Shown in pieces: positions 16,769 through 58,516 of a DNA stretch of 64,000 nt (positions within the stretch are counted from its first letter, which is position 1; each line of letters begins with the position of its first letter). A program made the position numbers and the translations under genes. Under the pieces are notes generated by a model. It saw nothing but the letters and a program-made list of their open reading frames with translations. It did no database searches and had not been told where the DNA came from. The stretch is from an uncultured Roseburia sp. (lineage in GTDB: Bacteria > Bacillota > Clostridia > Lachnospirales > Lachnospiraceae): NCBI GenBank assembly GCA_947038265.1, contig CAMQVP010000001.1, positions 60,968 to 124,967 on the forward strand, given 5' to 3'.

Positions 16769-17131
16769 ATGAACTATAAATTATGTGACGGAGAATACCA
16801 TCTAATGGAAATTGTATGGGAACTAGAGCCCATTAGCTCTACCGAACTGCACAAAGTATGCCTGCCGCGCCTTGGCTGGAAAAAATCCACGACTTATACC
16901 ATGCTCCGCAAACTTTGCGGACGGGGCCTGCTTTTAAATCAAGATTCCATCGTTACTTCTTCCGTCAAAAAAGAAGAAATTGAACGTTATGACAGCAGAG
17001 AAGTGGTTGAAACACGCTTTAACTGCTCCCTGCCAAAATTTGTAGCCGCTTTCCTAGGAGAGCGGAAACTAAGCCAAAAAGATGCAGACGAACTTCAAAA
17101 GCTAATTGACACTTACCGGAAAAAAGAATAA
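16769..17131 (+). CDS. BlaI/MecI/CopY family transcriptional repressor
   Basis: 120 aa, winged helix ...EYHLMEIVWELEPISSTELHKVC...KKSTTYTMLRKLCGRGLL.... Confidence 0.85.
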   Translation: MNYKLCDGEYHLMEIVWELEPISSTELHKVCLPRLGWKKSTTYTMLRKLCGRGLLLNQDSIVTSSVKKEEIERYDSREVVETRFNCSLPKFVAAFLGERKLSQKDADELQKLIDTYRKKE

Positions 17132-17145
17132 GGAGGCGCATTTTT

Positions 17146-18882
17146 ATGACAAACATAATTATGACTTTAACCAGATTAAGTTTTCTCACTTCTATTATGG
17201 CGCTTATTGTCTTAGGCATACGGTTCTGCTTAAGAAAAGCCCCAAAAACATACACCTATATTTTATGGATATTTGTATTTATCCGCGCAATCATGCCGGC
17301 GTCCTACACGTCTGACTACAGCCTGTGGAACCTAATGCAATCTTTCTTTTCCACACATCAGACAACAGCGCCTGCCACCAATGCAGAAACGCTTAAAGCC
17401 ATTTCAAAACCCTTTGCTTTTCCAAGAGACGCGGCAGCGGCTGTTTCACAAACCAAAGAAGCGGCCTTCACAACGCAAAACCTGTTCAACCCATGGATCA
17501 TAATAGCGGCGGTCTGGGCGCTTGGAATGTCCGTTATGCTGATTTACAGCCTGTATTCCATGCGAAAACTCCGTAAAACAGTAGAATTTTCCACTCTGTC
17601 CAAAACAGCCCATGCATCTGCAAACTGCCGCATTTACGAATCCGGACAGATCAAAACCGCATTTATTTTAGGATTTTTCTCTCCCGTCATCTACCTACCA
17701 AAAGGTCTCGGTTCGTCAAAAAAACAAATGATACTGGAACATGAATCTGTGCATATCCGCCGCCATGACCACCAGATCAAAATGGCCGCATGGATTATTT
17801 TATCCCTGCACTGGTTCAATCCCCTTATGTGGGTCAGCTTTTATTTTTTAAACAAAGATATGGAATTATCCTGCGACGAACAAGTGCTTATCAACCTTGG
17901 TTCCCAAATACGGGCTGACTACAGTTCCCTCCTGTTAGACCTTGCAATGCCAAACCGCATTTCCTCTGGGATGCCGCTTGCGTTCAGCGAAGGGAACACG
18001 AAAATCCGCATCAAAAATATACTGGCTTACCGGCCTGTGAAATTCGGCGCTTCCACAGCCGCAATCCTTTTAATCTGCATTACAATATATGGCTGCATGG
18101 GAAATCCAAAAAACGAGACAAGCGTCCCAGAAACCGAACAAACCAAACAAACTGAGCTGCAAAACGAAGGAACAGAACTTCCTGCCACACCGGAAGACGA
18201 AGAAAAACTTGCCTTCCTAAATACGTTTTTAGATAACTTAGCAAACTGCCGCGCCGAAGAAATTTACGCTGTTCTTTCACCGGAATTAAAAACGGAAGCC
18301 GACACATTTATGAACAACTCATTTAACATCACTCTAAACGAGCCAAAAAAACACAGGCGGATCAACCCATTCACCCCGACAGAAACGCCTGTAATTGAAA
18401 AAACAGATTCCGGATACCATTACAAATTCAAACGGCCAGATAATTATCCGCTCCCAGAATACGATAAATTTCATTCATCTGACGTTTGGGAAGGATTTCT
18501 GACGCTAGAGGAGACGGACAGCGGAATACAGGTTACAGAATGGCAAGACGGAAGTTATAATGAAATTGCCTCGCGCGAAGAATTTGACTGGCAGTTTCAA
18601 TACTATTCTTTTGAAAAAGAAGCAGAAACAGAACTAAACTGGCTGAATGAACACCCAGACGAAGTTGCTAATCTATACTATTACAACCGCGCAAACGAAG
18701 AACCGGAAAAAATCTTAACAGAGCGTTTCCATTTGAAAAATGGGACTGTAACAGACATCAACAAAGATAAAGAAAAAGAAATGCTTATCACATATAGCTG
18801 GGATGATGGCTCTGTGATATTCCGTATGGAACAGCTTTATAATGACATCTGGTATGTAACGGGAGCAGATACGGGGAAATAA
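17146..18882 (+). CDS. BlaR1-like M56 family membrane metalloprotease / signal transducer with a non-PBP C-terminal domain
   Basis: Four transmembrane segments and the zinc motif HESVHIRRHDH with a downstream ...ELSCDE.... The C-terminal region of about 270 aa is acidic and Y/W-rich and lacks the SxxK/KTG motifs of a penicillin-binding domain. Confidence 0.8.
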   Translation: MTNIIMTLTRLSFLTSIMALIVLGIRFCLRKAPKTYTYILWIFVFIRAIMPASYTSDYSLWNLMQSFFSTHQTTAPATNAETLKAISKPFAFPRDAAAAVSQTKEAAFTTQNLFNPWIIIAAVWALGMSVMLIYSLYSMRKLRKTVEFSTLSKTAHASANCRIYESGQIKTAFILGFFSPVIYLPKGLGSSKKQMILEHESVHIRRHDHQIKMAAWIILSLHWFNPLMWVSFYFLNKDMELSCDEQVLINLGSQIRADYSSLLLDLAMPNRISSGMPLAFSEGNTKIRIKNILAYRPVKFGASTAAILLICITIYGCMGNPKNETSVPETEQTKQTELQNEGTELPATPEDEEKLAFLNTFLDNLANCRAEEIYAVLSPELKTEADTFMNNSFNITLNEPKKHRRINPFTPTETPVIEKTDSGYHYKFKRPDNYPLPEYDKFHSSDVWEGFLTLEETDSGIQVTEWQDGSYNEIASREEFDWQFQYYSFEKEAETELNWLNEHPDEVANLYYYNRANEEPEKILTERFHLKNGTVTDINKDKEKEMLITYSWDDGSVIFRMEQLYNDIWYVTGADTGK

Positions 18883-18902
18883 AAGCGGCAAAAATACGTT
18901 TA

Positions 18903-19126
18903 AAGGAGAAGGGGCTTTCTAGCAAGGGCTGTGTTCAGGGATTAAGGGTTACTAAAGCCTTCCATATACACTTTTAAATACGGACGCAACCACCGCAAAC
19001 ACGCCTTCCATGGCGTGGCTGCGGTTTGCCCTGCCTTCCATGGCAGGGCATTGCTGACTGTGTATGGAAAGCTTAAGTAACCCTAAATCCCATCACAATG
19101 CCCTTGCTAGAAAGCCCCTTCTCCTT
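18903..19126. repeat. long nested palindromic element E1 (27-bp perfect terminal inverted repeats flanking 170 bp)
   Basis: Left arm AAGGAGAAGGGGCTTTCTAGCAAGGGC at 18903-18929; right arm GCCCTTGCTAGAAAGCCCCTTCTCCTT at 19100-19126. The interior has further imperfect inverted repeats (tgtgttcagggattaagggttactaaag ... gcttaagtaaccctaaatcccatcacaat) and a central dyad ccttccatggcgtgg/ccttccatggcaggg. Confidence 0.8.
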
Positions 19127-19149
19127 CAAACGGCGTTTCGTCGATCGAT

Positions 19150-19530
19150 AGGAAGTTTTGGGAAGTTTTTTATATGATTGCATCTATAAGGGGGTTGGGG
19201 TTGGGTTGGAATTTTGGAACATAGTTTCTTATGTCTGTGATTTATATGGATGCTGATATAGAGTATTATTTGGGGTGGCGTTGTTCCATTGTATCTATTT
19301 TGGTTCTCTGATAAAATACTATTTTTCTGTATAACTAATGGCTCAATTTACATACAATACATTGATTTTAGTTTGTTTGTAAAGTTACGTCTTATAGCTT
19401 TTTTCATTGTTTGGTTGTGGATTTTCTATATAGTAATGTTTAATTATTCTATCTTACTATATTAGACAAATAGTTTTTGCAGAAATTTTTTGTTGTTGTA
19501 ATCTGAATATTTTGATATTTTTGTTTTTAT
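19150..19530 (+). other. cytosine-depleted T/G-rich low-complexity tract
   Basis: By eye about 50% T, 20% G and under 10% C on the plus strand. It contains the G-run gggggttggggttgggttgg and no credible ORF (the track ORF 19531..19833 is F/L-rich). Confidence 0.7.
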
Positions 19531-19671
19531 ATGTTTTTTACCACTAATGACATACACTTTGCAAACATCTTTGACGCATTCTACGAATCTATTGTTCTTT
19601 TATTCTTCTTTGAATCTCTCTATATTTTAATTTTTCGTTTTGATAATTATTTTCTATATATTTCCTTCCAG

Positions 19672-20092
19672 TTCATTGAAAATTTCAACCATCACGCAAA
19701 CCATATTTTTTTGCTAACGACTTCTCTAAGATTCTTTCTAGGAAATCAAAAAAACATCAGAAATCGCCTATATGATTGCGATCGCTTGCATCTGCGGCAC
19801 ATGTATCGTTTGCTTGTTCTAATCTTTTTTTGAATCAATCATTGCATTGGATCTATCATTTCCTAATACGATTTCTTCCTATTCATTGATACTCTCAACC
19901 ATCACGAAAACCATATTTTTCTGCTAACGACTGCAAAAATTCTTTCTTTGAGATCCAAAAAGAACCTCAAAAATCAGGACACTTATATCTAACGCAATTC
20001 TATCTGGCTCTCTCCATCTATCAGAAAATCTCTATATCTATTCCATCCACTACGCTCCACCTCTATATTCCGCCGTCTGCCAACGCTGTAGT
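19672..20092 (+). repeat. two diverged tandem copies of a repeat of about 200 bp
   Basis: ttcattgaaaatttcaaccatcacgcaaaccatatttttttgctaacgact... at 19672 aligns with ttcattgatactctcaaccatcacgaaaaccatatttttctgctaacgact... at 19873. Identity is about 75-80% over about 110 bp, with a period of about 201 bp. Confidence 0.65.
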
Positions 20093-20334
20093 CATCGGGC
20101 GGATGCAATAGGGCTGTCTTGTTCGTTGCCTTGTGATTGGATTTAGAGTTTCTTAACAATCCCATTCCAGTCACAAGAATCCGCGAACAGGACGTTCGCG
20201 GAAGTCCTAATGCGCCATGGACGGCGCTTTTAGGACGGTTCTGTACGGCGCCAATAAAAAAACGGGATTGTTTAGAAACTCTTAATCCATGAACACAACA
20301 ACGAACAAGACAGCCCTATTGCATCCACCCGATG
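20093..20334. repeat. long nested palindromic element E2 (36-bp terminal inverted repeats with one mismatch, flanking 170 bp), related to E1
   Basis: Left CATCGGGCGGATGCAATAGGGCTGTCTTGTTCGTTG at 20093-20128; right CAACGAACAAGACAGCCCTATTGCATCCACCCGATG at 20299-20334. The inner inverted repeat ggatttagagtttcttaacaatccc / gggattgtttagaaactcttaatcc shares about 24 of 27 nt with the inner repeat of E1 (tgtgttca.ggattaag.gtt.ctaaa). Confidence 0.8.
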
Positions 20335-20418
20335 ACGGACGCCCCCACAGCCCCCTTTGTAACTTTTCTTCTCTTTCATCATAAATTATATAGATAGAAA
20401 AAAAGGAGACTTTTCACT

Positions 20419-22242
20419 ATGGCTATCGGTTATCTAATCCTACAAGCCCGTACCGCGCACGATGCCGTCCCATTAAGCGGCGTCAGGATTAAAATCTTAG
20501 ATCCCCTCGGAAACAATGTCTATGAATTATCAACAGATGAAAACGGAGAAACGCAGAAAATCCCCCTTGAAACTTTAAGCAGAGATTTTTCCCTAAACCC
20601 CTATTTTACAGAACTTCCCTATATCAGTTACAATGTCCGCACCCTCGCGGACGGCTTCCATTCCCTTTTTGTATCGGATATTCCCATCTATGAAGGCGAA
20701 ACCGCTATCCTGCCGCTTACGCTGATTCCCATGGAAACGAACAGACGCAATGCGCTGCAAACGGAAATCTCTGTCGGAAAACCTGCAGTCGCAATGGATA
20801 AACCCCGCCATCAGGAAGGAATGCCACAGGGAAATTATGTGCTCAGGCAAGTCGTAATCCCAAATCCAATTACTGTGCATCTTGGCTCGCCTTCTTCGTC
20901 CGCTTCTAATGTGCGGGTTTCGTTTCCAGACTATATTAAGAACGTTGCAAGCAGTGAAATCTACCCAACATGGCCGGAAGCTTCTCTAAGAGCTAATATT
21001 TACGCCATTATCACGTTTGCCTTAAACCGCGTTTATACGGAATGGTACAGAAGCCGCGGCTATAATTTTGATATTACAAATAATACCGCCTACGACCAGT
21101 ATTTTGTCTATGGAAGGCCGATTTATGATTCCATCAGCAGGATTGTAGATGAAATTTTTAATGAATATGTCCGCAGGAAAGGTCAGAACAACCCATATTT
21201 TACCTCGTTTTGTAATGGAACGACTGCCACTTGCCAAGGGCTTTCGCAGTGGGGTACGGTTTCTTTGGCGGAACAGGGCATGACCCCGATTGGCATTCTC
21301 CGTTCTTATTATCCAAAGGATATTGAAATCGCGCAAACGGATATTATCACGGGTATGCTTTCTTCTTATCCGGAAACGCCGTTAAAGCTTGGAAGCCGCG
21401 GCTTGAATGTGCAGACGATCCAGACTTACTTAAACAGGATACGGAAAAATTATCCGGCTATCCCGAAGATTACTGATGAGACAGGTGTGTTTGGGAAAAG
21501 CACGCAGGACGCAGTGAAAAAATTCCAGTCTGTGTTTCACTTGGCTTCTGATGGGATTGTTGGAAAAAGCACATGGTATAAGATTTCAAGCCTTTATACT
21601 GCCGTTACCAGACTTGCGGAATTAAATGGAGAAGGGGAAACGCTTGGGATCGGGACTGTGCCGCCGGATTCTTTGCTCCGTCAGGGAAGCAGGGGTCAGG
21701 ACGTAATTATTTTACAGTATTTGCTAAATGTGATTTCTGAATATTATGTCGGAGTTCCAGCTCCTGCGCAGGACGGCATCTTTGGAAGCCAGACCGCTCA
21801 GGCTGTTTCGGCTTTTCAAAGGATTATGCGTTTAAATCCGGACGGCATTGTAGGGCCTTTGACTTGGAACGCGCTTTATGAGGCTTATCGGGGAATCGAG
21901 CAGAATATTCCGTCTTTTGGACCGGATCAAGGGACGATTGAATATATCGTTCAGGCAGGTGACACGCTTTGGGCGATTGCCAGAAAATACGGCACGACGG
22001 TTGATGTGTTGAAAAGTTTAAATGGATTAGACAGCGATTTACTGAGGATTGGACAGAAGCTGAAAGTGCCTGTTTCCCAGAGCGCCCCCTCCTATACCGA
22101 ATATACGGTGCAGTCGGGAGATACGCTTTGGTCGCTTGCAAAAAGATACCATACCACGGTAGATGCGATTAAGCAGTTAAATAATCTGTCAAGTGACTTA
22201 CTTAGGATTGGACAGATTTTAAAAATACCTGAAAACAGGTAA
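20419..22242 (+). CDS. SpoIID/LytB-domain cell-wall protein with 2 peptidoglycan-binding (PG_binding_1) and 2 LysM domains
   Basis: SpoIID-type motifs ...EASLRANIYAIITFALNRVY..., ...FDITNNTAYDQYFVYG... and ...CQGLSQWGTVSLAEQGMTPIGILRSYYP.... Two ...GSRG.NV..IQ.YLN...DGIVG..TW... modules and two C-terminal LysM repeats (YIVQAGDTLWAIARKYG... and YTVQSGDTLWSLAKRYH...). GGAG lies 9 nt upstream. Confidence 0.75.
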   Translation: MAIGYLILQARTAHDAVPLSGVRIKILDPLGNNVYELSTDENGETQKIPLETLSRDFSLNPYFTELPYISYNVRTLADGFHSLFVSDIPIYEGETAILPLTLIPMETNRRNALQTEISVGKPAVAMDKPRHQEGMPQGNYVLRQVVIPNPITVHLGSPSSSASNVRVSFPDYIKNVASSEIYPTWPEASLRANIYAIITFALNRVYTEWYRSRGYNFDITNNTAYDQYFVYGRPIYDSISRIVDEIFNEYVRRKGQNNPYFTSFCNGTTATCQGLSQWGTVSLAEQGMTPIGILRSYYPKDIEIAQTDIITGMLSSYPETPLKLGSRGLNVQTIQTYLNRIRKNYPAIPKITDETGVFGKSTQDAVKKFQSVFHLASDGIVGKSTWYKISSLYTAVTRLAELNGEGETLGIGTVPPDSLLRQGSRGQDVIILQYLLNVISEYYVGVPAPAQDGIFGSQTAQAVSAFQRIMRLNPDGIVGPLTWNALYEAYRGIEQNIPSFGPDQGTIEYIVQAGDTLWAIARKYGTTVDVLKSLNGLDSDLLRIGQKLKVPVSQSAPSYTEYTVQSGDTLWSLAKRYHTTVDAIKQLNNLSSDLLRIGQILKIPENR

Positions 22243-26755: not shown

Positions 26756-29700
26756 TTATTTTACTTTTACCTTAAATACTACTTTTTTACCTGTGCCATC
26801 TGTCGCAGCCGCCGTAATTTTCACTGTTTTGCCTTTCTTCGCATTTTTTGCAATTTTTACTTTTGCAGAAGCCGCCTGCTTGCCTTTCCCTTTTACAGTG
26901 GCAATCGCAGGATTCGAAGAAGTCCACTTCAATGCCTTATTCACGGGCTTACCGCCTTTTGTCTTTACTTTTGCTTTTAATGTGACTGTTTTATTCCGCG
27001 CCGCCGTTACGTTCTTTTTCCCGCTTGCCGTAACTTTAGACACGCTTCCCTTCATAATCTGAATCGTTGCCGTTGCAGACACTTTGCCATCTGCCGTTGA
27101 CGCCATAACGACAACTTTCTGTTTTGCTCCTTTCGCAGATAGCTTAACGCTGCCGCTTCCACTTAACTGCGCATACTTGTTATTTGAAGTAATTTTCCAT
27201 GTAAGCTTTTCACTTTTTGCGCTTTCTGGCAGAATCGTTAGTTCTTTTAGCAAATTAATTGATTTTCCTTTTGCTATTTGATATTTGGAAGATTGAAACT
27301 TCAAGCTAGTTACTTTCGTTGTTTTCGTTTCTTCTTTCTTTTCTGCTAAAGCTATCCTAGCTTTCGTAAGATTCGCCGTTAAAGTTTCAATACGCTGTTT
27401 TGAATATCCGGCTAATTGTTTATCCGTTATATTTTTCACAGAGTTATAAACATTGACAAACGCATTCCATGTTTTATCCGTATAATTCTTCTTTCCCGCC
27501 TGAATGATTCTTGCTGACGTCTGCCTTTCACTTTTAAATTTAGAAATTGCATTTTTCTTAGCCGTGTCTGTCTGAGTAGAGGAACCGCCATTATTCTGAT
27601 TTTCCTCATCTTTTTCCCAGTCTGCATAAAGCGTTAAGTCTTCCGTTACCGCTTCTTCTGAAAAATCAAAATCTTCTCTAAGCCCTTTATCCCGATACCA
27701 AACGCCGGTAAATGTATAACCGCTTCTTTTTGGAACCGTTTCCGGCGGGGTCACAAAACTTCCCGCTTCCACTTCTTTTGTCTCCGGCTGTGATCCTTCG
27801 TAGTTCCAGTCAAATGTCACCGTACATTTCTGCGCGCCAGACCCATTTTGATTCCATTCTGCATAAAGCGTCAGGTTATCCGTTACTTTTTCTGTCGTAA
27901 AGTCATATTCTTCCGTACATGCCTTATTCAAGTGCCATTTTCCTGTAAACGTATAGCCTTCCCGCTCCGGAGCTTCATCCGGCGGAGCCACACTGCTTCC
28001 GGCATCCACTTCTTTTCGAACTGTGTTTCCACCTTCATAATTCCAGTTAAATGTTACGATATAAGTTTCCGATGCCACTCCGTCTTGCCGCCAGCCTGCA
28101 TACAACGTCAAATTATCCGTTACTTTTTCTGTCGTAAAGTTATATTCTTCCGTACATGCCGCATCACGGTACCATTTTCCTGTAAACGTATAGCCTTCCC
28201 GCTCTGGAGCTTCATCCGGCGAAGCCACACTGCTTCCAGCATCCACTTCTTTCCGAATTGTCGTTGCGCCTTCATAATTCCAGTTAAATGTTACGATATA
28301 AGTTTCCGATGCCACTCCGTCTTGCCGCCAGCCTGCATACAACGTCAAATTATCCGTTACTTTTTCTGTCGTAAAGTTATATTCTTCCGTACATGCCGCA
28401 TCACGGTACCATTTTCCTGTAAACGTATAGCCTTCCCGCTCCGGAGCTTCATCCGGCGAAGCCACACTGCTTCCGGCATCCACTTCTTTCCGAATTGTCG
28501 TTGCGCCTTCATAATTCCAGTTAAATGTCACGATATAGGTTTTTGACGCCACTCCATCTTGCCGCCAGCCTGCATACAATGTGAGGTCGCTTGTTACATT
28601 TTCCGTAAAATCATATTCTTCCGTACATGCCGCATCACGGTACCATTTTCCTGTAAACGTATAACCTTCCCTGTTTGGAGCCGTAAGCGGAGCCACTGCC
28701 GGACTGCCGGATTCCACAGTCTTCGTCTCAACGTCAGCTCCCTCATAATTCCAATTAAATGTCACGTTATGTTCAGGAATTTTATCCTGATTCCAGCCTG
28801 CATAAAGCGTCATATTGCCTGTTACCTTCTCTGTAGCAACGTCAAATTTCTGAGCGCAGTCTGCATCCCGATACCACTCTCCCGTAAAGGTATAGCCTTC
28901 CCTGTTCGGAGCCGTGTCTGGAGCTGTCACTACACTGCCTTTCTCTGCTTCTACTCTTTCAGTTGATGCATTTTCATAATTCCAATGGAATGTAACCGTA
29001 TAAATAGGCACAAGATCATCGATTGCATTTTGCAAATCCGCCGCCACACTGTCTACCCTGCTTTGCGCAACGTACGCGCTGTCTTTTATCTTTTCTGCCG
29101 AAGCTATTTCCGTTCTTAACGCCTCTAAACTGGAAGCGGTATATTTTCCTGAAAGATGAATTGCCGCTTCTTTTAAAAGATCTTCCAATACAGATTTATC
29201 CACGGACGTCCCATCTGTCAAATCCTCTAATGCTGACAACAACGCATTTTTTGCTTCCCTGATTTCATCAAATGTCGCAGAATCTCCTTTTTCTGCCACT
29301 GCTTTCGCCTGATCATACGCCTCAACATATGCTGTCCATTTTACCGGATTATAAAATTCTGCATCGTCTTTTATAAATTCTGCCGCTTCGCAGAGACTAT
29401 CTAAATCAGCCTTTATATCCGATAGTTCAACATCTTTTGTATATGACATCGCCGTTTCCAGCTTACTTTTCACCTGCCGGATCAGATCGGTAGAGTCACA
29501 ATCAGCCGCTATTTCACGGGCTTCTGCAATCGCCGCCTGCAATTTTGTCCAGCTTTCCTCTGAAAAATCCGTTTTTTCCAGATTTTCCGCCTCTTGGATT
29601 AGCCGGTTTATTTCCGTTTTGGCTGTTTCCAACTCCTCTTCATTCTCTGTTTTCCAGCCTGCATAAAGCGTGATCGATTCCGTAACTTTCTCTGTATTAA

Positions 29701-32700
29701 AATCGTATTCCGTCTTACAAACCGCTTCTTTATACCACTTTCCGGTAAATATCTGCCCTTCTCTCTCTGGCGTCTCCTCCGGTTCTGTCGCGGCAAATCC
29801 ACTTGTCACTTTATTCGTGATGTTCGTTGAGCCAGAATAATTCCAATCGAACGTAACCGTATAGACTTCTATCAGCGCAGTCGCTGTCCTGTTTAATTTT
29901 TCTAACGCTTCGTCAATCTCTGATAAAGATGCGTTCCCTTTGTTTAAAACTTCATCGGCTTTTTTACGCGCATGATCAAAAGCTGTAAAGCTTGCGGCAG
30001 TATAGGCATCTGCCTGATATGCTGCGCTCATATACTTCGTGTATAAAGTCTGCAGCTGCTCTTTCTTTGCAGTGATCTCATTCAATGCGCTGTTATTCAA
30101 TGCGCTGTTTAAACTGTCCGTCGCTGCTTTTAAGCTGGAAACTGTAACGCCGTCTTTTAAAATCGCTTTTGCTTTTGTAATTGCTCCTCTTAAAGCGAGC
30201 CATCCTTTCTCTGAATAATCGCTTTCTTCTTTTCCTTCAGCAGTTTTAATTAACGATTCTAAATCCGCTATCCCGTCTACCAGCGTCCGATTCGCCGCCA
30301 TATATCCTTGCTCTACAGGATTGCTGGAATAATCAATATCCAAATGCGCCAGAATTTCCTTTATCGCCGCATAGTTTCCATGTCCACTAAATACTTGAAT
30401 TTGTAAATAATGCCCAAATTTCCCATCTTTGTTTGTAGTTTCCGGCAGCGCCAAAACTTCTTCTGTACCGGTTATATCTGTAACTTTCTCTCCTTCCACT
30501 CTATTAATTCCCGTTTCTGGATTGTTCATTATCTGATAAGTGGATTCATTATAGGCATCGCCTGTAACCAATTTATATGACTGAATATACCCATTGGTTC
30601 CACTCGGCTTTTGTAAGGCTTCTATCGAATCATATTCTGATAAATCCCTTGGAAATTCAACCGTAAACACCGCCGGATTTGTTTCTGAAACTGTAAATCC
30701 GCTATACTGTGAATGCCAGTATGTATTTAATTTTCCATCTACTGCCAAATTTGCGACGCCATCGCCATAAGTATTTCCATTCTTGTTATTCTCTTGGGTA
30801 TTCGCCCACGCTTTTCCACTGAGATCTTCATCTCCCTCATACTGTTCCGGCAGCGTCACAGTAGCGCTCACACGCTCAGACGTCCCATCACTAAAAACAG
30901 CCTCTGCCGTTATTGTAGCCGTGCCAACTCCTACAAAATATACATTTCCATACTTATCGACAAGGGCAACATCCTCATCACTGGAGCTCCAAGAAATACT
31001 TGGATTCTGCCCGTTGCTGTTTCTAAAAACAGCTTTTAATTTGACTGAATCTTTCGCAGTAACCACTTCTACATTTGATGGGCTGATCACAGTTTCTTCT
31101 GTTGCCGGCAGAATATTGCTGACTTTAATTGTCGTCTCCGGTGTGCCTGCAAAGGCAATTTTTCCTGCTGTGTCAGCGCTCACTGAGCCGCCTGCATCTT
31201 CCTGTTCAAAAATCTTTTCCCCATTAATCTCTAAGCTGAATTTCCGATCATTTGTCCATGATATCCGGACTCTTTTCAGATTGTCCGCTCCCGGATTATC
31301 TTCTCTATCTCCTTGATACCATGGGGAGTTGTCTTCTGAATACTTTTGCCAAAACCAGCCATAGTCATCAAATCCGAAAAACATGCCTAATGCTTTGTCA
31401 CTTCCATTCTTATAACCCATATACACGCCCATCCAGTTCTTGCCGGTATATTCCAAATCAAATTCGAAAAATCCCTCATGGGTAAAATCAAATGTCTGTT
31501 TACTTACAAATGTTGTCGGAGAGCTGTAAGAGCTGGATGAACCGCCCGTTAACTCCAATACTCCATTTTGAGACGAAACAACCGCGCCATTCGGGTTCCT
31601 GTCAGCTATCCATTCTCCTTCCAAAATTTCAGGCGGAATTTCTTTCCACTTTGCATATAGGATAAGATTGCTCTTTACAACTGCGTTAAAATCATATTTT
31701 TTCTCAAACTTACTGTCCGCATACCAGTTGACAAACTCATATCCTTCTTTTTCCGGCATTTCGTAAAGCATTTCTTTCGTCGGCTTTACTGCTTTTCCAT
31801 TTAATGCAACCGTCTGGCTTAAAGCATGCACTTCGGCGCCGTCACTCATAAAAGTCACCGTAAATGTCTTTTTCTCCAGATTTATTGCGTCAATTGCCGC
31901 TTTTGCCGCTTTCAGCGCAGCATTTACTCCCGCAATATCCGACGCTTTGTCAATATTCGCTTTGCCTTCCGCGATTGCGCGCTTTAGTTCAATTCTCTGG
32001 TCATATTCATTGATATTCGTATAATTGTCAAGTTTCTGTTTCGCTTCCTCCTTTGCCTGCGCCAATTCTCTTTCTGCCGCCTGCTCTTTTGTTTCAATCG
32101 AATCCAGATTTTCTTTCGCTTCCTGCAATGCGGCGTTCATGCCGGATATATTCATCGCTTTGTCAATCGCCGCTTCTCCTGCCGCAATCGCTTCCGCCCT
32201 TTTCGTCTTGCTTTCAGCGCCATAGTTGTCCGCGTTCGTATATTCGTTCAATTCCGTCTTTTTTGCATTCTTTAAAGTCTGAATCGCTGTAACTATCCCT
32301 GCCAGATTCTCTTTCACAACAACTTTACATGCAAAAGATTGTGACTCCTCATCAGCATAAGCCGCCGTAACTGTTGTTTCACCTGCTCCAACTGCCGTAA
32401 TAATGCCATTTTCGTCCACTGACGCTGCTCCCGGATTCGAAGAAGTCCAGACTGCCTTTCCCCTATCATCCTGCAAAAGGGACAAATTCTCCGCTATCGC
32501 AGCGCGGTCACCCGAAACCAGATAAATATTCTCTTTATTATCCTGATTCCCAAATGCCGCTTCCTTAAATACGGCAGTTGAACCGGACGGGCCTGACGTT
32601 TCAATTTTTAGATTGCGAATCCCTTCAATATCAAGGGATAACGACGTTTCCAAATCTCCTGCTGAAGTGTCAAATTGATACAATGGCTGTGGATTGTCAT

Positions 32701-35700
32701 CCCCATAAATTTTCACCTCAGCCGCATTATTTCCCAAACTTCCTTCTATGACGATCTGAGAAGTAAATTTGTCAAATTCCTTTCCAATTAAATCCGCAGT
32801 AACCGTAGTCCCAGCCGGAATTGAAACTGATTTTAAGGTCTCATCTTTTTGGACAGAGGCATCCCAACTGCCTAATGTCAAATCGCTGAGATAACTGGTT
32901 GTCAAAGCTTTCTCAAACTTCTCATAAAGACAAAATTCTGCCGCCGTAATAAATTTATTTGCCCCGCCCTCTCCTGCGGTAGTCAGCGCGCGGATTCTAA
33001 TTCTTCTTGCATTTTTTGCGTCAAACTCCAAACTCTTTGTATTGGCATTATCCGCCCATGTAATGGACGGTAAAGTGATTTTTTTAAAATCCTCGCCGCT
33101 TTCCGTCTCGCTGTAATATAATTCACAAGAAAGAATCCTTCCGTTATTATTATTACCTTGCCTTGGAACATAATCCAATTTCCCAATGTCTATATTTTCA
33201 GGAAGCGTAATTGTATAATTCCCCGGAACATTAACCTGATCATATTTCGTATGCCAAATCGTCCCTAAATCTTTGTCAAGGGCTTTCTGCGCCCCTTCAT
33301 CTACGCTGTTTTGGCTGTCCGCCACGGCGCTTAACGCGCTTGAGTCTATTTTGTGATAACCATAAATTGTTTGCTCGTGCCCCAGGATACGGCCATAAAC
33401 CGCATCATACGCCGCCTTTTCCTCATCATCTAACAGCTCATATGCCTTTGCAAGCGCAATTTTTGCATTATGGAACTTGCTTTCAGAAGCCAAATCGTCC
33501 ATTGCCATATGCTCCAACAGATAATCGGAATAACTGTTCATCATGGACACAAACACGTCTTTTTGCTTTGCTTCATTCCAGCCTTGCTGCATAAGCCCTC
33601 TGTCTGTCATCACATAGGTCACAGTTTTTATCCCGCTGTTTCCTTCAATATAATACGCCGGAATATCTTTTTTAGTATACTGGCTTGTATAATACATTTT
33701 TCCAATTTCTTCATGATCCAGTTCTATTTTCGTTCCAACCGGAAAGTCAAAATCCTCATTATACGCATCCGCTTTATCTTTTCCAGTTAAAGTCCGGTCA
33801 AACACTTTCGTCCCAGACGAATTATACACACGGACTGCGACATACTTATTCTCAAAATATACATGCGGCTCTACATTATTGATTCTGACGTTAATCTTAT
33901 TTTCCCCTGTTTTTTGCGAAACAACGATAATTTCGCCGCCCATGCCCGTCATACGGATCTGCATATCGTCCGCCAGCAGGTTGCCTGTTACTTTTTTATA
34001 TTCCAAATCCTTCGTAACGGCTCCTTTTGCCGCTACCAGATACTCATTGCCATACTGATAGTTTTTTTCCCGTGGCATTGGAAGCTCTACTTCATAAATG
34101 CCCACTGGGAGAGTCGCCGTAATCTGGGCGTTTTCAACCGGAAGCCGCTTAACAATCTTTGACCCGTTTTTGATAACGACATATTTTCCCTGGATCTTTT
34201 CTAAGTCATCAATCGACACATTCAACGTAACATTGCTTGTGTCATTCCGTTGAAGCTCCGCCAAATCGTCTGTGCTGACAAGGCTGTAAATGCCGTTCAT
34301 TACCTTGCCTTTTTCTGCAAGCGCCTGACGGACTGTTTCCGCTTCTTCATCGTTTGTATAGAGATTTCTCAGATAATAAAGCATCGGCAAATCCTGATCA
34401 TAAATTTTATCTTCTAAAACTTCCGATGCGTGGATATGCCATCCTTCAAAATAAGGGATTACATTATATCCGCCCGTCTGGCTGAAACTCTCTACGATCG
34501 CCTCTGAAGAAGACATATTGCTTCCATGCTCGTAATTATATTTACGGAAAGTCGTATGCATTGCCGCCGTCGTTTTTTCCGGTCCCAGACGGTCGAGCAT
34601 ATTGACAAACATAAACAGACTGTTCTTATACATTTTCCGTCCTGCAGTGATGTCATTAAATACAGGCACTGCATTACGCGTCTGCTCCGATTCCCTTCCG
34701 AGCGCATTATACGCTTCCAGTTTCGTACTTCCATACCCGCCTAAAAGCCATCCAAAATCCTTCTCCGGACGGTAAGTCGGTTCAAAATAATATCCCATAA
34801 TATTATTCGTCGTCTCTACAAAAGAGTTTTCCTGATTTGCAATCGCCCCTTCATACCCATGCCCGAACTCATGCAGGGAAGTCCAGTCTTTATACAAATA
34901 GGAGCCAAGATTATCCCCGTGGAACGCGCTGTGATCTCCGGAATAGTATGCAAGTCCTGCGCCATTTACGTTCGCTTTAATAAAGAATTTTGCCCGAACG
35001 TTTTGATTATAAGGCTTATCCGTATAAAAATCCAATCCGGAATACGCATCATACTGTTCTTCAAATGCCGCCGCCCAGTCTAACATCTCATCAATCGTAT
35101 GAAATTGGTAGACTGGATCGTTTTTCTTATCCGGATGATCTATAATCTCATACCTGTTCTTCCTTGGCGCCAAAAACGTAGCCGCCTGCCCTTCTATAAT
35201 CGCAAACGAATCTTCTGTTTTATCCCAATCAGAAAAGAACGCCGACTCATCATCTCCATACCGGTAATAAGGAATATCACGGTAAGCATCGTTCCATTCC
35301 ACCTCAACCACCGGCTGTACCGTCGTATTCTTTGGCGTATAAATAAACGGCACGCTGTCCACGCTCTTTTTCTTCTCATTTTCTATACACTGGTTTTTTA
35401 CCGTGATCCATTCCCCACCAGCAGGAATGCGGACAGAATCCTTCGGGTCAGACTCTTCCTCTCCCTTCACTTCAACCAGTTTTTCCGTAGTTGCATCAAT
35501 ATTCAAAAGCTTTAAATTCAATTCTTTCGTAAACTCTGTATGATTAACCAGACGGATTTTCATAGTTTCATTTTCCGGCAGCCAAAAACCCAGATTCTGC
35601 CTGTCATGGTTATATCCTCTGTTAAACCCGATATTCGTCAAATGGGACGCGTCCGGAAGCGTATACAAGATCCTCTTGATATTCTTTTTCTCCGTGTCCC

Positions 35701-36094
35701 CACTGTCCTTTGCTAAAACGGATACCGTAAGCGTATGTTCCGCTGTTCTGCCGTCCGAGTCCGTCACCCGGTATGTAACCGTCTGATCGCCTAACTTAGA
35801 CGTATCGATCGATCCTGTCTGGACAATATTCTTCGTTAAATCTCCATCTTCCTGATCATCTGCAAAAACAATATTCCTGCTATTTTCATAGTCGAACTCT
35901 TCCCCCTGATAGATCCAAGTCTTTAAAGTTCCCGATAAAAACGGCGTCCGATACGCATCAAACCCATTTTCCGATTCATTTGCAGTTTTTGCAGTATCCG
36001 GCGCTTCCGCCGCTTTCAAATTCATACCGGGCATTATGCCAAGCGCCATTGCAGATGCAAGAACCACTGCACAACTCTTTTTTAAAAACCCCAT
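26756..36094 (-). CDS. giant secreted M60-like (enhancin-type) zinc metalloprotease/adhesin carrying F5/8-type-C, Big_2, FIVAR and about 8 Listeria-Bacteroides (Flg_new) repeats
   Basis: 3112 aa counted from the ATG at 36094, which has GGAGG 10 nt upstream. Signal peptide MGFLKKSCAVVLASAMALGIMPG. The zinc site is LHEFGHGYEG (HExxH) in an M60-like context. There are two discoidin-like segments (...LGTIWHTKYDQ... and ...LNTYWHSQYSG...), alpha-helical FIVAR-like units (...AKENLDSIETKEQAA...), 79-aa repeats YIVTFNWNYEG...GYTFTGKWYRDAACTEEY...LTLYAGW, Big_2-like C-terminal domains and a lysine-rich tail. No LPXTG motif is visible. Confidence 0.85.
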   Translation of the reverse strand: MGFLKKSCAVVLASAMALGIMPGMNLKAAEAPDTAKTANESENGFDAYRTPFLSGTLKTWIYQGEEFDYENSRNIVFADDQEDGDLTKNIVQTGSIDTSKLGDQTVTYRVTDSDGRTAEHTLTVSVLAKDSGDTEKKNIKRILYTLPDASHLTNIGFNRGYNHDRQNLGFWLPENETMKIRLVNHTEFTKELNLKLLNIDATTEKLVEVKGEEESDPKDSVRIPAGGEWITVKNQCIENEKKKSVDSVPFIYTPKNTTVQPVVEVEWNDAYRDIPYYRYGDDESAFFSDWDKTEDSFAIIEGQAATFLAPRKNRYEIIDHPDKKNDPVYQFHTIDEMLDWAAAFEEQYDAYSGLDFYTDKPYNQNVRAKFFIKANVNGAGLAYYSGDHSAFHGDNLGSYLYKDWTSLHEFGHGYEGAIANQENSFVETTNNIMGYYFEPTYRPEKDFGWLLGGYGSTKLEAYNALGRESEQTRNAVPVFNDITAGRKMYKNSLFMFVNMLDRLGPEKTTAAMHTTFRKYNYEHGSNMSSSEAIVESFSQTGGYNVIPYFEGWHIHASEVLEDKIYDQDLPMLYYLRNLYTNDEEAETVRQALAEKGKVMNGIYSLVSTDDLAELQRNDTSNVTLNVSIDDLEKIQGKYVVIKNGSKIVKRLPVENAQITATLPVGIYEVELPMPREKNYQYGNEYLVAAKGAVTKDLEYKKVTGNLLADDMQIRMTGMGGEIIVVSQKTGENKINVRINNVEPHVYFENKYVAVRVYNSSGTKVFDRTLTGKDKADAYNEDFDFPVGTKIELDHEEIGKMYYTSQYTKKDIPAYYIEGNSGIKTVTYVMTDRGLMQQGWNEAKQKDVFVSMMNSYSDYLLEHMAMDDLASESKFHNAKIALAKAYELLDDEEKAAYDAVYGRILGHEQTIYGYHKIDSSALSAVADSQNSVDEGAQKALDKDLGTIWHTKYDQVNVPGNYTITLPENIDIGKLDYVPRQGNNNNGRILSCELYYSETESGEDFKKITLPSITWADNANTKSLEFDAKNARRIRIRALTTAGEGGANKFITAAEFCLYEKFEKALTTSYLSDLTLGSWDASVQKDETLKSVSIPAGTTVTADLIGKEFDKFTSQIVIEGSLGNNAAEVKIYGDDNPQPLYQFDTSAGDLETSLSLDIEGIRNLKIETSGPSGSTAVFKEAAFGNQDNKENIYLVSGDRAAIAENLSLLQDDRGKAVWTSSNPGAASVDENGIITAVGAGETTVTAAYADEESQSFACKVVVKENLAGIVTAIQTLKNAKKTELNEYTNADNYGAESKTKRAEAIAAGEAAIDKAMNISGMNAALQEAKENLDSIETKEQAAERELAQAKEEAKQKLDNYTNINEYDQRIELKRAIAEGKANIDKASDIAGVNAALKAAKAAIDAINLEKKTFTVTFMSDGAEVHALSQTVALNGKAVKPTKEMLYEMPEKEGYEFVNWYADSKFEKKYDFNAVVKSNLILYAKWKEIPPEILEGEWIADRNPNGAVVSSQNGVLELTGGSSSSYSSPTTFVSKQTFDFTHEGFFEFDLEYTGKNWMGVYMGYKNGSDKALGMFFGFDDYGWFWQKYSEDNSPWYQGDREDNPGADNLKRVRISWTNDRKFSLEINGEKIFEQEDAGGSVSADTAGKIAFAGTPETTIKVSNILPATEETVISPSNVEVVTAKDSVKLKAVFRNSNGQNPSISWSSSDEDVALVDKYGNVYFVGVGTATITAEAVFSDGTSERVSATVTLPEQYEGDEDLSGKAWANTQENNKNGNTYGDGVANLAVDGKLNTYWHSQYSGFTVSETNPAVFTVEFPRDLSEYDSIEALQKPSGTNGYIQSYKLVTGDAYNESTYQIMNNPETGINRVEGEKVTDITGTEEVLALPETTNKDGKFGHYLQIQVFSGHGNYAAIKEILAHLDIDYSSNPVEQGYMAANRTLVDGIADLESLIKTAEGKEESDYSEKGWLALRGAITKAKAILKDGVTVSSLKAATDSLNSALNNSALNEITAKKEQLQTLYTKYMSAAYQADAYTAASFTAFDHARKKADEVLNKGNASLSEIDEALEKLNRTATALIEVYTVTFDWNYSGSTNITNKVTSGFAATEPEETPEREGQIFTGKWYKEAVCKTEYDFNTEKVTESITLYAGWKTENEEELETAKTEINRLIQEAENLEKTDFSEESWTKLQAAIAEAREIAADCDSTDLIRQVKSKLETAMSYTKDVELSDIKADLDSLCEAAEFIKDDAEFYNPVKWTAYVEAYDQAKAVAEKGDSATFDEIREAKNALLSALEDLTDGTSVDKSVLEDLLKEAAIHLSGKYTASSLEALRTEIASAEKIKDSAYVAQSRVDSVAADLQNAIDDLVPIYTVTFHWNYENASTERVEAEKGSVVTAPDTAPNREGYTFTGEWYRDADCAQKFDVATEKVTGNMTLYAGWNQDKIPEHNVTFNWNYEGADVETKTVESGSPAVAPLTAPNREGYTFTGKWYRDAACTEEYDFTENVTSDLTLYAGWRQDGVASKTYIVTFNWNYEGATTIRKEVDAGSSVASPDEAPEREGYTFTGKWYRDAACTEEYNFTTEKVTDNLTLYAGWRQDGVASETYIVTFNWNYEGATTIRKEVDAGSSVASPDEAPEREGYTFTGKWYRDAACTEEYNFTTEKVTDNLTLYAGWRQDGVASETYIVTFNWNYEGGNTVRKEVDAGSSVAPPDEAPEREGYTFTGKWHLNKACTEEYDFTTEKVTDNLTLYAEWNQNGSGAQKCTVTFDWNYEGSQPETKEVEAGSFVTPPETVPKRSGYTFTGVWYRDKGLREDFDFSEEAVTEDLTLYADWEKDEENQNNGGSSTQTDTAKKNAISKFKSERQTSARIIQAGKKNYTDKTWNAFVNVYNSVKNITDKQLAGYSKQRIETLTANLTKARIALAEKKEETKTTKVTSLKFQSSKYQIAKGKSINLLKELTILPESAKSEKLTWKITSNNKYAQLSGSGSVKLSAKGAKQKVVVMASTADGKVSATATIQIMKGSVSKVTASGKKNVTAARNKTVTLKAKVKTKGGKPVNKALKWTSSNPAIATVKGKGKQAASAKVKIAKNAKKGKTVKITAAATDGTGKKVVFKVKVK
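27610..29010 (-). repeat. intragenic tandem repeats of 237 bp (79 aa); two adjacent copies are identical at protein level and flanking copies are near-identical
   Basis: Period-237 DNA repeats, e.g. ccagcctgcatacaacgtcaaattatccgttactttttctgtcgtaaagttatattc recurs at about 28091 and about 28328. The protein copies YIVTFNWNYEGATTIRKEVDAGSSVASPDEAPEREGYTFTGKWYRDAACTEEYNFTTEKVTDNLTLYAGWRQDGVASET occur twice, flanked by close variants. Confidence 0.85.
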
Positions 36095-36358
36095 AACAAA
36101 TAAGACCTCCTTCTGAAAATTGTTCACAAAATGTACAGTTATTCTCATTATAGAATCTTTCCTGCCATTTTACAACCACTTTTTTACATTATTTTTTCAA
36201 AAAAATATAAGCCAAACAGACAGAAAGCAGTCAGCGGATCACATCGAAAATGCAAACAAGCTGAAATCAATTTCATATAGTTTGCACAAAATTCTTATGC
36301 CAAATTTATCAAAAACGCCTATTTACAATCTAAAGAATACCATATATCCTATAAAAAT

Positions 36359-48957: not shown

Positions 48958-49423
48958 TTTCTGTTTCCTCATAGTATTCAAAAAATCTGGTGTCCAACTC
49001 TGGATAGGAGCGCTTGAGTGAAATTGGCTTGCCGCTTCGGTTTAAAAAGCAGTGCTCGCTTGTCGCTAGGGTGCGGAGCTCTCCTGTTTTTTTGTCGGTC
49101 ATACGGTATTCTACTTTCATTTTTATTCCGTTATATTCGGAGATTTTCGTTTCGATTATAACGGTATCGTCAAAATGAACCATGCTTTTATATTCACAGG
49201 CTATGGACAGTACGGGGCTGATGATTTCCATCTTTTCCATGCCTTTATAGGATAGGCCGATCTGCTCCATGAGATCCATGCGGGCTTCTTCCATCCAACG
49301 GATATAGTTGGAGTGGTGGATTATGCCCATTTGATCAGTCTCGTAGTATTTTGCATGATGTTCGTATGGTTTGATATGGATTTGGCCTGCTTGTCCATAT
49401 AACTGTAATTCTCTTCCTGCCAT
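48950..49423 (-). CDS. hotdog-fold acyl-CoA thioesterase (YbgC/4HBT-like)
   Basis: 157 aa, ...YYETDQMGIIHHSNYIRWMEEAR.... Confidence 0.65.
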   Translation of the reverse strand: MAGRELQLYGQAGQIHIKPYEHHAKYYETDQMGIIHHSNYIRWMEEARMDLMEQIGLSYKGMEKMEIISPVLSIACEYKSMVHFDDTVIIETKISEYNGIKMKVEYRMTDKKTGELRTLATSEHCFLNRSGKPISLKRSYPELDTRFFEYYEETENE

Positions 49424-49519
49424 AAGTCATTCCTCCTTTTGCAAGTGGGGCTTAATAGTATTATTATGTCACAGAGGGCGGGGAATTTCAAGTTGGAAAT
49501 GATTTTAAAAATGTTGATT

Positions 49520-49549
49520 GGGGTGGGGTGAGGCAGTGAGGCAGTGAGG
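49520..49549 (+). repeat. tandem octamer repeats GAGGCAGT/GAGGCGGC leading into palindrome E3
   Basis: gggtggggtGAGGCAGTGAGGCAGTGAGGCGGcagacgc. Confidence 0.6.
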
Positions 49550-49677
49550 CGGCAGACGCAAAACTATAGTTCATTCAGACACGCTCTCGCTCTTAGAAGC
49601 CAGTAGCGGTTCTAAGTTCGAAAAAACCTCACTAAGAACCGACAGGCTTCTAACGGTCTTCATTGAACTATAGTTTT
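49550..49677. repeat. nested palindromic element E3 (24-bp perfect terminal inverted repeats flanking 80 bp)
   Basis: CGGCAGACGCAAAACTATAGTTCA at 49550-49573 and its exact reverse complement at 49654-49677. Inner imperfect repeats cttagaagcc / ggcttctaa and gttctaagt / actaagaac. Confidence 0.8.
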
Positions 49678-49739
49678 GCGTCTGCCGCGGAACGTCTTTG
49701 GGGATCAATATTTTTAAATTTGCTTGTTAGGGAGTGTGG

Positions 49740-50280
49740 GAAGTTGGACTTTTTTGATTTATTATGGGTTTGTTTCTGGGGGATTTTATATTATTTTTTG
49801 TTGTATCTTTTTGTTTGGGCTGTCTTTTTGACTTCGTAGATGTTTTAGTTATATTTTTTGTTTTTCTTTCTGTCTTTTTGATTCGGAGCAGATTCTTTTT
49901 GTTCATTTTTTTATTGTTGATTTTTGATTTATTTTTGTTATTTATTATTTGAGTTTTTTGTGTCTTGTTTTTTTATTTTATTTTCGTAGTTCGTTTTGTA
50001 GTTTGTTCTTATGATTTGTTTTTTGGTTTTTTTATCTTCTTGGGAGACGCATTGTTTCTGTTAAGTTGTTTAAGGTTTTCTTTCCAATTTATTTTTTGGA
50101 AGGAGGGGGAATGTTTCGTTTTGTTAGTTTATTATTTCCGATTTTTTTAATATTATGGATTAATATGTTGTGTATTCGTTTTTTATTTTCTAGAAATTTT
50201 GTGTGGGAGATTTTTAATGGATTTTTAGTTTTCTTTTTATTTATGAGTGATTAGTTTTATTTGCTGATTTTACTTTTAAT
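49740..50280 (+). other. cytosine-depleted T/G-rich low-complexity tract of about 540 bp
   Basis: By eye about 60% T, about 20% G and under 10% C on the plus strand. Only F/L/V-rich artefact ORFs are present (49764..49952, 49965..50150, 50066..50254). Confidence 0.7.
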
Positions 50281-50713
50281 TAATTCAATGAAGCATTTTC
50301 AATAATATACATTATATCCTGCCTTGACTTTTATGTATGTTAATTTCTTTTTTAACGAAAGCATGTCAAAAATGCGATTCTGTAGCTGTTTTATCTTTCT
50401 AATAGATATTGTCTGCTTTATTATATCTTTATTTAATATGATATAATCTGCCTTTTGTTTCAAAAACTATCGCGTCTTTTCATGATATAATAGTTCTATC
50501 TCTATATAGTGTATAGATCTATTTTAATAAATCTATTTGATGAATTATTGATTTTTTCTTAAATTCAAAATATTTGGCATTTTCTTTGGAAAAGCATTCC
50601 AAACAATATGAAAAGGTGAATGAAGTTTCTATGGACTTATGTTTTTCTATTTGAATTAAGAATGCTTTTTGATAATGTGTTAAAATTTCTATATTTTATT
50701 AAGGTGTGATTCA

Positions 50714-50722
50714 TGTTATAAT
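50714..50722 (+). promoter_or_regulatory. extended -10 element TGtTATAAT upstream of the amidase gene
   Basis: tcaTGtTATAATatcc, about 128 nt upstream of the ATG at 50850. Confidence 0.4.
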
Positions 50723-50849
50723 ATCCACGGAATGAATCCTAGGCTTTGTCTTATGGAGACACATAGATCTGGAAGTATGGGGGATTTTTTAGCGAATAAG
50801 ACTTTTTACTAAAATGTCAAATATTTTAAATTAAGAAAGAGGGCTGATT

Positions 50850-58158: not shown

Positions 58159-58384
58159 CGTTTCGTTCCTCTCCTTTTGTAAATCAACACGACATACGAT
58201 TATATATTATTTTAATGACATTTTTTCAATAACGCTTATAACAGCATATTTCCATTCATAATTAAATACACATTATCCACTAATTATAAACCACATAAAG
58301 TGATACTCTAATCATCTTTTCGTGGTACACAGTCTATAGCGTATTAATTTATTATTTTCAATGTTTTTTCAAAATCTTAATCAA

Positions 58385-58516
58385 TTATAAAACACATACA
58401 TTATCTTCTTCTGTACTATATATAAAATTCCAATCACAATTCTGATAATTTTTATCACTATAAATTTTTTCAATCTGAGATTGTATGTAGTGAATTACAT
58501 TGAAATCTTTAGACAT
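58385..58516 (-). CDS. small ORF (43 aa) translationally coupled to hsdS
   Basis: The start AACAATGTCTAA overlaps the hsdS stop, and AAAAGGAGG lies 13 nt upstream. The product is MSKDFNVIHYIQSQIEKIYSDKNYQNCDWNFIYSTEEDNVCVL. It is not in the ORF track because it is shorter than 60 aa. Confidence 0.3.
   Translation of the reverse strand: MSKDFNVIHYIQSQIEKIYSDKNYQNCDWNFIYSTEEDNVCVL

Follow-up and report, generated by a model that had tools for sequence, protein, structure and literature searches.

TwoAYGGAY is a structured-RNA motif that was described from gut metagenomes, Clostridia and gammaproteobacteria and was judged to be probably an RNA and not cis-regulatory, with a closing stem P1 that is "often very large", 24 base pairs in the example given (Weinberg et al., 2010; PMC2864571). 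It has been an orphan motif since 2010. Two strong matches to CsrA-binding sites were later found in it, and it was proposed as a CsrA-sequestering small RNA (sRNA) of Clostridia (Gardner and Eldai, 2015). Rfam places the family (RF01731) in clan CL00106, that of CsrB, CsrC and RsmX/Y/Z, and a scan of the E. coli csrB locus confirmed that this is the CsrB clan. Here we examine E2, a giant hairpin upstream of a SpoIID/PG_binding/LysM gene (hereafter the LysM gene) in a stretch of 64,000 nucleotides of an uncultured Roseburia sp. (GCA_947038265.1, contig CAMQVP010000001.1). This whole stretch is called the window, and coordinates refer to it. An initial annotation of the same DNA had seen E2 as inverted repeats around a short segment, and had considered an invertible promoter or a miniature inverted-repeat transposable element (MITE). 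We find that E2 adds one more member to an RNA family that is known but functionally orphan; it is not itself a new kind of system. The explanation that we favour, with a probability of roughly 55%, is that of a structured-RNA element whose GGA loops would bind a CsrA-type dimer and which is part of a non-coding block that is mobile or was acquired horizontally.

The Rfam scan of the window, in which the gathering score of RF01731 is 43 bits, returned two full-length TwoAYGGAY matches, one of 121.4 bits inside E2 and a second of 131.2 bits on the minus strand at 18931–19098. The remaining Rfam matches of the two hairpins are weak and come from miRNA precursor models only. The near-perfect inverted repeats flanking 170 bp upstream of the LysM gene, on which the initial annotation was centered, are indeed present: the 38-mer GTCATCGGGCGGATGCAATAGGGCTGTCTTGTTCGTTG at 20091–20128 on the plus strand recurs as its reverse complement at 20299–20336 with 1 mismatch (0 expected in shuffled sequence), and the right arm ends about 82–85 nt before the start of the LysM open reading frame (ORF) at 20419. 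A repeat finder extends these arms to 76 nt (20091–20166 and 20261–20336, 87% complementary) around a 94-nt center, and both strands fold into a single giant hairpin, the plus strand at −152.4 kcal/mol (z = −16.7) and the minus strand at −159.2 kcal/mol (z = −17.0). The remarks that the interior is palindromic and that a giant hairpin would fit were right, the interior being made of the inner part of P1 and two apical hairpins, P2 and P3. The 36–38-bp "inverted repeats" are the outermost third of P1, a continuous stem closing a known RNA motif. The features of the block and of its downstream border are the following.

18886–19143, minus strand: hairpin 1, the second TwoAYGGAY copy ("type A"), core at 18931–19098 (131.2 bits, and fold)
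19144–20090, no strand: spacer between the hairpins, 947 bp, about 33% G+C, with no credible ORF
20091–20336, plus strand: E2 as a whole, a 246-nt giant hairpin and TwoAYGGAY "type B" copy with an extended closing stem P1 (arms, fold and Rfam)
20091–20128, plus strand: outer 5' arm of P1, formerly the left repeat, outside the Rfam model
20299–20336, plus strand: outer 3' arm of P1, formerly the right repeat, its single mismatch being a C.A on the plus strand
20131–20296, plus strand: core, Rfam RF01731 TwoAYGGAY, model positions 1–168 of 168 (121.4 bits, E = 2e-21)
20180–20202, plus strand: hairpin P2, a 9-bp stem with the loop AGGAC, reading ACAGGACG (fold and Rfam alignment)
20204–20236, plus strand: hairpin P3, whose stem presents GCC-AUGGAC-GGC, with a GGA loop matching the reported CsrA-site consensus CANGGANG (fold and Rfam alignment)
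20357–20386, plus strand: LysM promoter-like site TTGTAA-N18-ATAAAT, followed by a ribosome-binding site and the ATG at 20419 (context only, outside the element)

Like the motif as it was described, E2 has two apical GGA-loop hairpins and a large closing P1, and it belongs to the gut Clostridia and gammaproteobacteria range. Both AYGGAY-type loops can be recognized. P3 carries AUGGAC, and P2 carries ACAGGAC, which keeps the GGA and is 1 base shorter than the family consensus CAUGGAUG; the same variant is found in the minus-strand copy of L117, a Roseburia metagenome-assembled genome. A pattern scan over one genome per species gave 120 loci, mostly in Pseudomonas and its relatives and about a dozen in Lachnospiraceae and other Clostridia. 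Fourteen Firmicutes copies were confirmed with the Rfam model, and L032 has one more, which is degenerate. Across 15 Firmicutes copies, 33 of 41 pairs of the consensus have undergone compensatory double changes, and inner P1 is among the parts that covary. All 15 carry GCCAYGGANGGC with little or no variation, and the GGA is invariant in both loops across the family. The loop sequences and the internal mismatches are conserved in a strand-specific manner across phyla, and within the inner stem G.U pairs outnumber A.C by 9 to 2. Conserved loops, conserved internal mismatches, covariation of the core and this G.U excess together point to a functional molecule that is single-stranded, strand-specific and recognized by some factor. 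The gammaproteobacterial version has a short P1 inside a repeat of about 270 nt with extra 3' hairpins, and occurs in multiple copies per genome. At Pseudomonas loci such as L031, L033, L050 and L113, this repeat ends in CGGATATGTAC. The R6 family of Pseudomonas fluorescens (177 bp, with 34-bp inverted repeats; Silby et al., 2009) is a possible counterpart, to judge by sizes alone, which are compatible.

The closing stem of E2, at about 76 bp, runs past the Rfam model and differs in this from the quoted 24-bp example. The same is true throughout the Firmicutes: P1 extends 35–79 bp past the Rfam match in all 16 copies that were folded, including the two of the window, so that P1 totals 67–108 pairs and whole hairpins measure 229–334 nt. 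Complementarity was scored over the 90 nt to either side of the model: between the two flanks of one copy the median was 26.5 and the minimum 16, and control pairings across copies had a median of 7 and a 95th percentile of 12. The outer arms are thus copy-specific in sequence, and the inner core alone is common to the copies. This long and non-conserved closing stem in Firmicutes is an addition to the anatomy of the family.

A further addition is the paired layout, in which E2 is the right-hand (type B) member of a two-part unit with a type A copy on the opposite strand. Hairpin 1, the type A copy, begins 3 nt past the BlaR1 stop codon and has arms of 85 nt (18886–18970 and 19059–19143, 82% complementary). 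The two copies of the window are oppositely oriented with their 5' ends towards the spacer, and 5'-facing pairs are also found in L117 and L032. Type A comprises the left copy of the window and the plus-strand copy of L117, type B comprises E2 and the minus-strand copy of L117, and the type B members share the shortened first loop ACAGGAC; the A/B types are kept between the window and L117 despite unrelated neighboring genes. At the loci of gammaproteobacteria, a 5'-facing partner lies within 1.3 kb of 67 copies; 36 testable copies lack a partner, and the number of convergent partners is 0. One Firmicutes pair, at L091, is convergent. Pairs with facing 5' ends are thus present in two phyla. 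Their spacers have neither sequence nor length in common (947 nt in the window, about 136 nt in L117 and 84–1071 nt in Pseudomonas). The spacer of the window holds an internal duplication of about 210 bp at 74% identity, and those between paired Pseudomonas copies hold hexamer microsatellites such as (TTGCTG)n, (TCTTGC)n, (CTTTGG)n and (GATCTT)n. This A/B layout does not appear in the part of the text of Weinberg et al. (2010) that was available.

Comparison of the LysM locus among relatives shows that the block is specific to the lineage of the window. Orthologues of the LysM protein were found at 82%, 79%, 76%, 75% and about 70% identity, and apart from conspecific contigs none of the fetched orthologous loci carries TwoAYGGAY upstream of the gene. 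The protein collection contains no orthologue at 83–98% identity, the range in which an empty site inside the species might be seen. In the closest relative, L127 (82%), the BlaI-BlaR1-LysM synteny is kept and the element is missing, with a BlaR1-LysM intergenic region of 148 bp and a plain terminator as compared with 1,537 bp in the window. In the 79% (L205/L206) and 76% (L208/L209) lineages the block is missing as well, and a response-regulator gene directly abuts LysM. By parsimony over these three lineages, the block 18886–20336 is an insertion in the lineage of the window. The only significant intergenic homology lies between window 20340–20415 and L127 4924–4996, and this stretch holds the promoter-like site, the ribosome-binding site and the start codon just downstream of E2. 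The promoter TTGTAA-N18-ATAAAT which had been noticed between E2 and the start codon is thus present and also conserved in L127, and since L127 is free of the element, the LysM promoter is independent of E2. The suggestion that E2 gates the LysM gene finds no support in these comparisons, as promoter, ribosome-binding site and start codon are conserved where the element is absent, and other copies adjoin unrelated genes. In Firmicutes the latter encode ABC ATPases, a MiaB-like radical SAM enzyme, ThiI, CbiD and an alanine symporter; the genes near the copies have no common functional theme, and the copies take any position relative to them.

Two other changes were observed around the same gene. 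The BlaI/BlaR1-like pair (window 16769–18882) is present in the species of the window and in L127 and is missing in the 79% and 76% lineages, and thus represents another lineage-specific change, by gain or by loss, at this site. In a related species (L148, 3100–5000; also L135 and L136) a LysM orthologue of 74% identity is split, at a point equivalent to window position 21046 or so, by an insertion of 1.9–2.9 kb that encodes a 531-aa large serine recombinase with Resolvase and Recombinase domains. This insertion looks like a gene-intervening, "skin"-like element in a sporulation-type gene.

Within the species, E2 is identical across all conspecific contigs. Two haplotypes exist, and all 7 of their differences fall in the spacer and none in the 504 hairpin positions, where about 3.7 would be expected at the spacer rate (P ~0.02). 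This indicates that the hairpins are constrained or homogenized, and such invariant hairpins beside a fast-evolving spacer are, together with the lineage-specific insertion, also new to the description of the family. Ten independent samples, represented by 7 full-length contigs and 4 contigs that start at the center of E2, all have the asymmetric center in the orientation of the window; the search for both orientations that had been advised thus returned a single one, with the reservation that assemblies are consensus sequences from which a minor inverted subpopulation could escape. The short-read contigs L213, L214, L216 and L217 start at window position 20178, in the center of E2, and L125 starts at 19105, inside the right arm of hairpin 1. 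These breaks are those expected from a perfect inverted repeat exceeding the k-mer of the assembler, and giant palindromes of this kind break short-read assemblies systematically. In index blocks 132–134 of those holding the corresponding proteins, no contig is longer than 2–5 kb.

The most concrete candidate binder of the GGA loops is a dimeric CsrA-type RNA-binding protein. The CsrA-site consensus, reportedly that of Schubert et al. from 2007, is said to be CANGGANG, and the GGA motifs that fit it in the loops of E2 are CAUGGACG in P3 and ACAGGACG in P2. E2 resembles CsrB, CsrC and RsmX/Y/Z in having such motifs in hairpin loops, and its two sites, about 30 nt apart, would suit one CsrA dimer. 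It differs from these sRNAs in having two sites instead of about 5–22 and in presenting them within a very long double-stranded stem. TwoAYGGAY also lacks a recognizable promoter and terminator, is dispersed, multi-copy and variably present, and its binding of CsrA is predicted. In the scenario that we propose, a 1.45-kb non-coding block consisting of hairpin 1, spacer and E2 has been inserted between BlaR1 and the SpoIID/LysM gene in the lineage of the window only. The two GGA loops at the apex would bind a dimeric CsrA-type protein, as suggested by Gardner and Eldai (2015), and the long double-stranded stem may act as a stabilizing stalk or as an RNase III processing stalk that frees the core from longer transcripts. 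Release from longer transcripts is proposed because neither a promoter nor a terminator belonging to the element can be seen. The block itself may be a non-coding module that spreads selfishly or by horizontal movement. The stalks recognized by RNase III, such as rRNA precursor stems and pri-miRNA-like hairpins, likewise have a long, near-perfect and non-conserved stem around a conserved core; the parallel is a pure analogy, and an outer stem without G.U excess does not favor RNA-level selection. If the CsrA-sponge hypothesis holds, the one functional idea in the literature consulted, TwoAYGGAY would supply a missing CsrA-antagonist RNA for Clostridia.

Several observations weigh against this explanation. 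The outer stems have no real excess of G.U over A.C (34 versus 29), and the sole outer mismatch of E2 is a C.A on the sense strand, neither of which is predicted by RNA-level selection alone; for the arms overall the counts are 43 versus 31, and the strand-bias test on them is not decisive. Around the 15 Firmicutes hairpins tested, a sense-specific promoter or U-tract is absent (T counts of 3.6 versus 3.6, and best promoter scores of 7.6 versus 7.0 out of 12, for sense versus antisense, not significant), and promoter-like sites in 18700–20500 are no more common than in shuffled sequence (6 versus 6.1 expected). No csrA gene was found in the 64-kb window. Finally, the dispersal, the multi-copy state in Pseudomonas and the presence or absence among lineages would fit a DNA-level mobile element equally well, and a recent preprint, to which we return below, may assign a different function to TwoAYGGAY.

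The geometry of E2 is that of invertons such as E. coli fimS and the Bacteroides capsule promoters, in which a surface or cell-wall gene is preceded by inverted repeats around a short segment, here of about 170 bp. A recombinase would flip the segment between the 36-bp repeats and so switch LysM transcription on and off, and a population of mixed orientation could also cause the frequent assembly breaks inside E2. The 38-bp inverted repeat alone accounts for these breaks, however, and the initial reading as an invertible promoter is not supported, on several grounds. The arms do not end at the repeats; they go on inward, to a length of 76 nt, and, as part of one continuous hairpin, enclose a motif that is conserved and strand-specific; the sole internal promoter-like site, TTAACA-16-AAGAAT, scores 9 of 12 and is no better than in shuffles; no invertase or other recombinase is among the annotated ORFs of the window; one orientation was seen in all samples; the LysM promoter lies downstream of E2 and is conserved in the element-free orthologue; and other family copies are found beside unrelated genes. 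We regard an inverton as extremely improbable. A local cis-acting role, in which E2 is a terminator, an insulator or a 5' leader that controls BlaR1 read-through or LysM expression, is somewhat easier to imagine, and still quite improbable. Both hairpins are extremely stable, hairpin 1 stands where L127 has an ordinary terminator, and E2 ends 21 nt ahead of the −35 box of LysM. On the plus strand, though, E2 is not followed by a U-tract, orthologous loci with the same promoter do without it, the gene contexts of the other copies are unrelated, and the family was judged not to be cis-regulatory when it was described. Retron non-coding RNAs have a long closing stem around small hairpins, and to this extent they loosely resemble E2. 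That a reverse transcriptase encoded elsewhere uses E2 as its template or partner RNA is improbable, and the thought has its sole basis in the vocabulary of one preprint, dated 24 September 2026 and entitled [quoted passage not shown] (10.64898/2026.09.22.753630). In the word counts available for it, TwoAYGGAY occurs 52 times, the abstract included ("TwoAYGGAY RNA" 8, "element" 4, "loci" 5), next to cDNA (24), reverse transcriptase (14), defense (5), cryo-EM (4), retron (2) and transposase (1), and either "reverse transcriptase" or "defense" is in the abstract; recombinase, integrase, nuclease, sRNA, CsrA and RsmA all count 0. Against the idea, retron is counted only twice, the reverse transcriptase content may concern another part of the paper, and there is no reverse transcriptase-like ORF in the window or in the 8-kb blocks around the approximately 120 copies.

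The alternative with the most in its favor, which we nonetheless hold to be rather unlikely, is a mobile palindrome that acts at the DNA level, like MITEs, repetitive extragenic palindromic (REP) doublets forming hairpins (REPINs) or palindrome-associated transposable elements (PATEs). Its hairpins would serve as single-stranded or cruciform DNA for a transposase encoded elsewhere, the opposed pair would mark both termini of a non-autonomous element whose passenger is the spacer, and the outer stems would be kept by arm-to-arm correction, through quasipalindrome template switching, and not by an RNA function. Much of the distribution agrees with this. The block is present in the lineage of the window and missing at the same site in three related lineages, L117 carries the same A/B pair amid unrelated genes, the neighboring genes share no theme, and the outer stems show no G.U bias. 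In Pseudomonas genomes the family is multi-copy and contigs break at the copies, and the polarity of the gammaproteobacterial pairs is purely 5'-facing (67 paired and 0 convergent). A defined junction is also suggested by TAY, mostly TAC, just outside one hairpin end in 9 of 15 copies (0–4 of 15 at other offsets); in the subfamily of the window, L117 and L032 the sense-strand 5' junction is YGTAG, which in the window (20086–20092) reads CTGTAG followed across the junction by TC. E2 is akin to the R-family repeats of P. fluorescens (Silby et al., 2009; PMC2718517) and to the REP doublets that RAYT transposases mobilize in being intergenic, hairpin-forming and dispersed, and TwoAYGGAY shares with them the multiple copies in Pseudomonas, the opposed doublets and the differences in presence between lineages. 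What sets it apart is the covarying core, with strand-specific loops and mismatches across phyla that are typical of functional RNA, and the outer stems, which are copy-specific where MITEs would have terminal inverted repeats common to their copies. The spacers, which have no relation to each other and measure anything between 84 and 1071 bp, and the convergent Firmicutes pair of L091 also speak against it. The MITE-like reading of the initial annotation keeps part of its support, the family being dispersed and the block missing in relatives. No target-site duplication was found, and neither the ORFs of the window nor the neighbors of the copies at about 120 loci include a candidate cognate transposase.

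Several further possibilities were rejected. As for a target-site duplication at E2, the left and right flanks resemble L127 CCGCCGCCAAACGCCCC, and the similarity on the left, 13, is no better than the shuffle mean of 13.8; in 18 of 19 Pseudomonas pairs there is none either. Locus-specific inverted flanks at the Pseudomonas pairs, as would be left by insertion into pre-existing hairpins, exceed the cross-pair control in only 2 of 19 and are not a general feature. No adjacent protein partner recurs: when the 1,669 ORFs that flank about 120 loci were clustered, only generic paralogue families emerged, such as ABC ATPases and two-component proteins. A plasmid or phage origin has no blastn hit in either collection, and the one viral pattern match is not TwoAYGGAY. 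Instead of being lone sRNA genes, the hairpins could be the distinct A and B ends, 5' inward, of a protein-less non-coding cassette which relocates between unrelated intergenic sites in Lachnospiraceae and Pseudomonas without target-site duplication, with a defined TAY junction and with copy-specific outer stems kept nearly perfect by DNA-level correction. We offer this tentatively and are inclined to doubt it. If true, it would be an undescribed kind of mobile structured-RNA module, possibly delivering decoys for a CsrA-like regulator.

For annotation, the favored reading of E2 as a copy of a structured-RNA family carries the practical lesson that in gut Clostridia a giant palindrome ahead of a surface gene should be scanned against Rfam before it is named an inverton or a MITE. 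The window is ordinary chromosome, with genes for BlaI/BlaR1, a two-component system, DapF, PolA and similar proteins, and no recombinase, transposase, reverse transcriptase or CsrA is among its ORFs. A type I restriction-modification system (HsdR, HsdS and HsdM) occupies 55183–61975 at about 30–35% G+C, and a 1.4-kb AT-rich non-coding stretch (49400–50850; 28% G+C around 50–51 kb) lies upstream of an Amidase_3 gene; neither region has an Rfam hit. On the minus strand at 26756–36148 there is an ORF of 3,130 aa, for which a conspecific contig shows Peptidase_M60, mucin-binding, F5/8 type C, GH101_N and Ig-like domains, and its product is a putative giant mucin-targeting surface protein.

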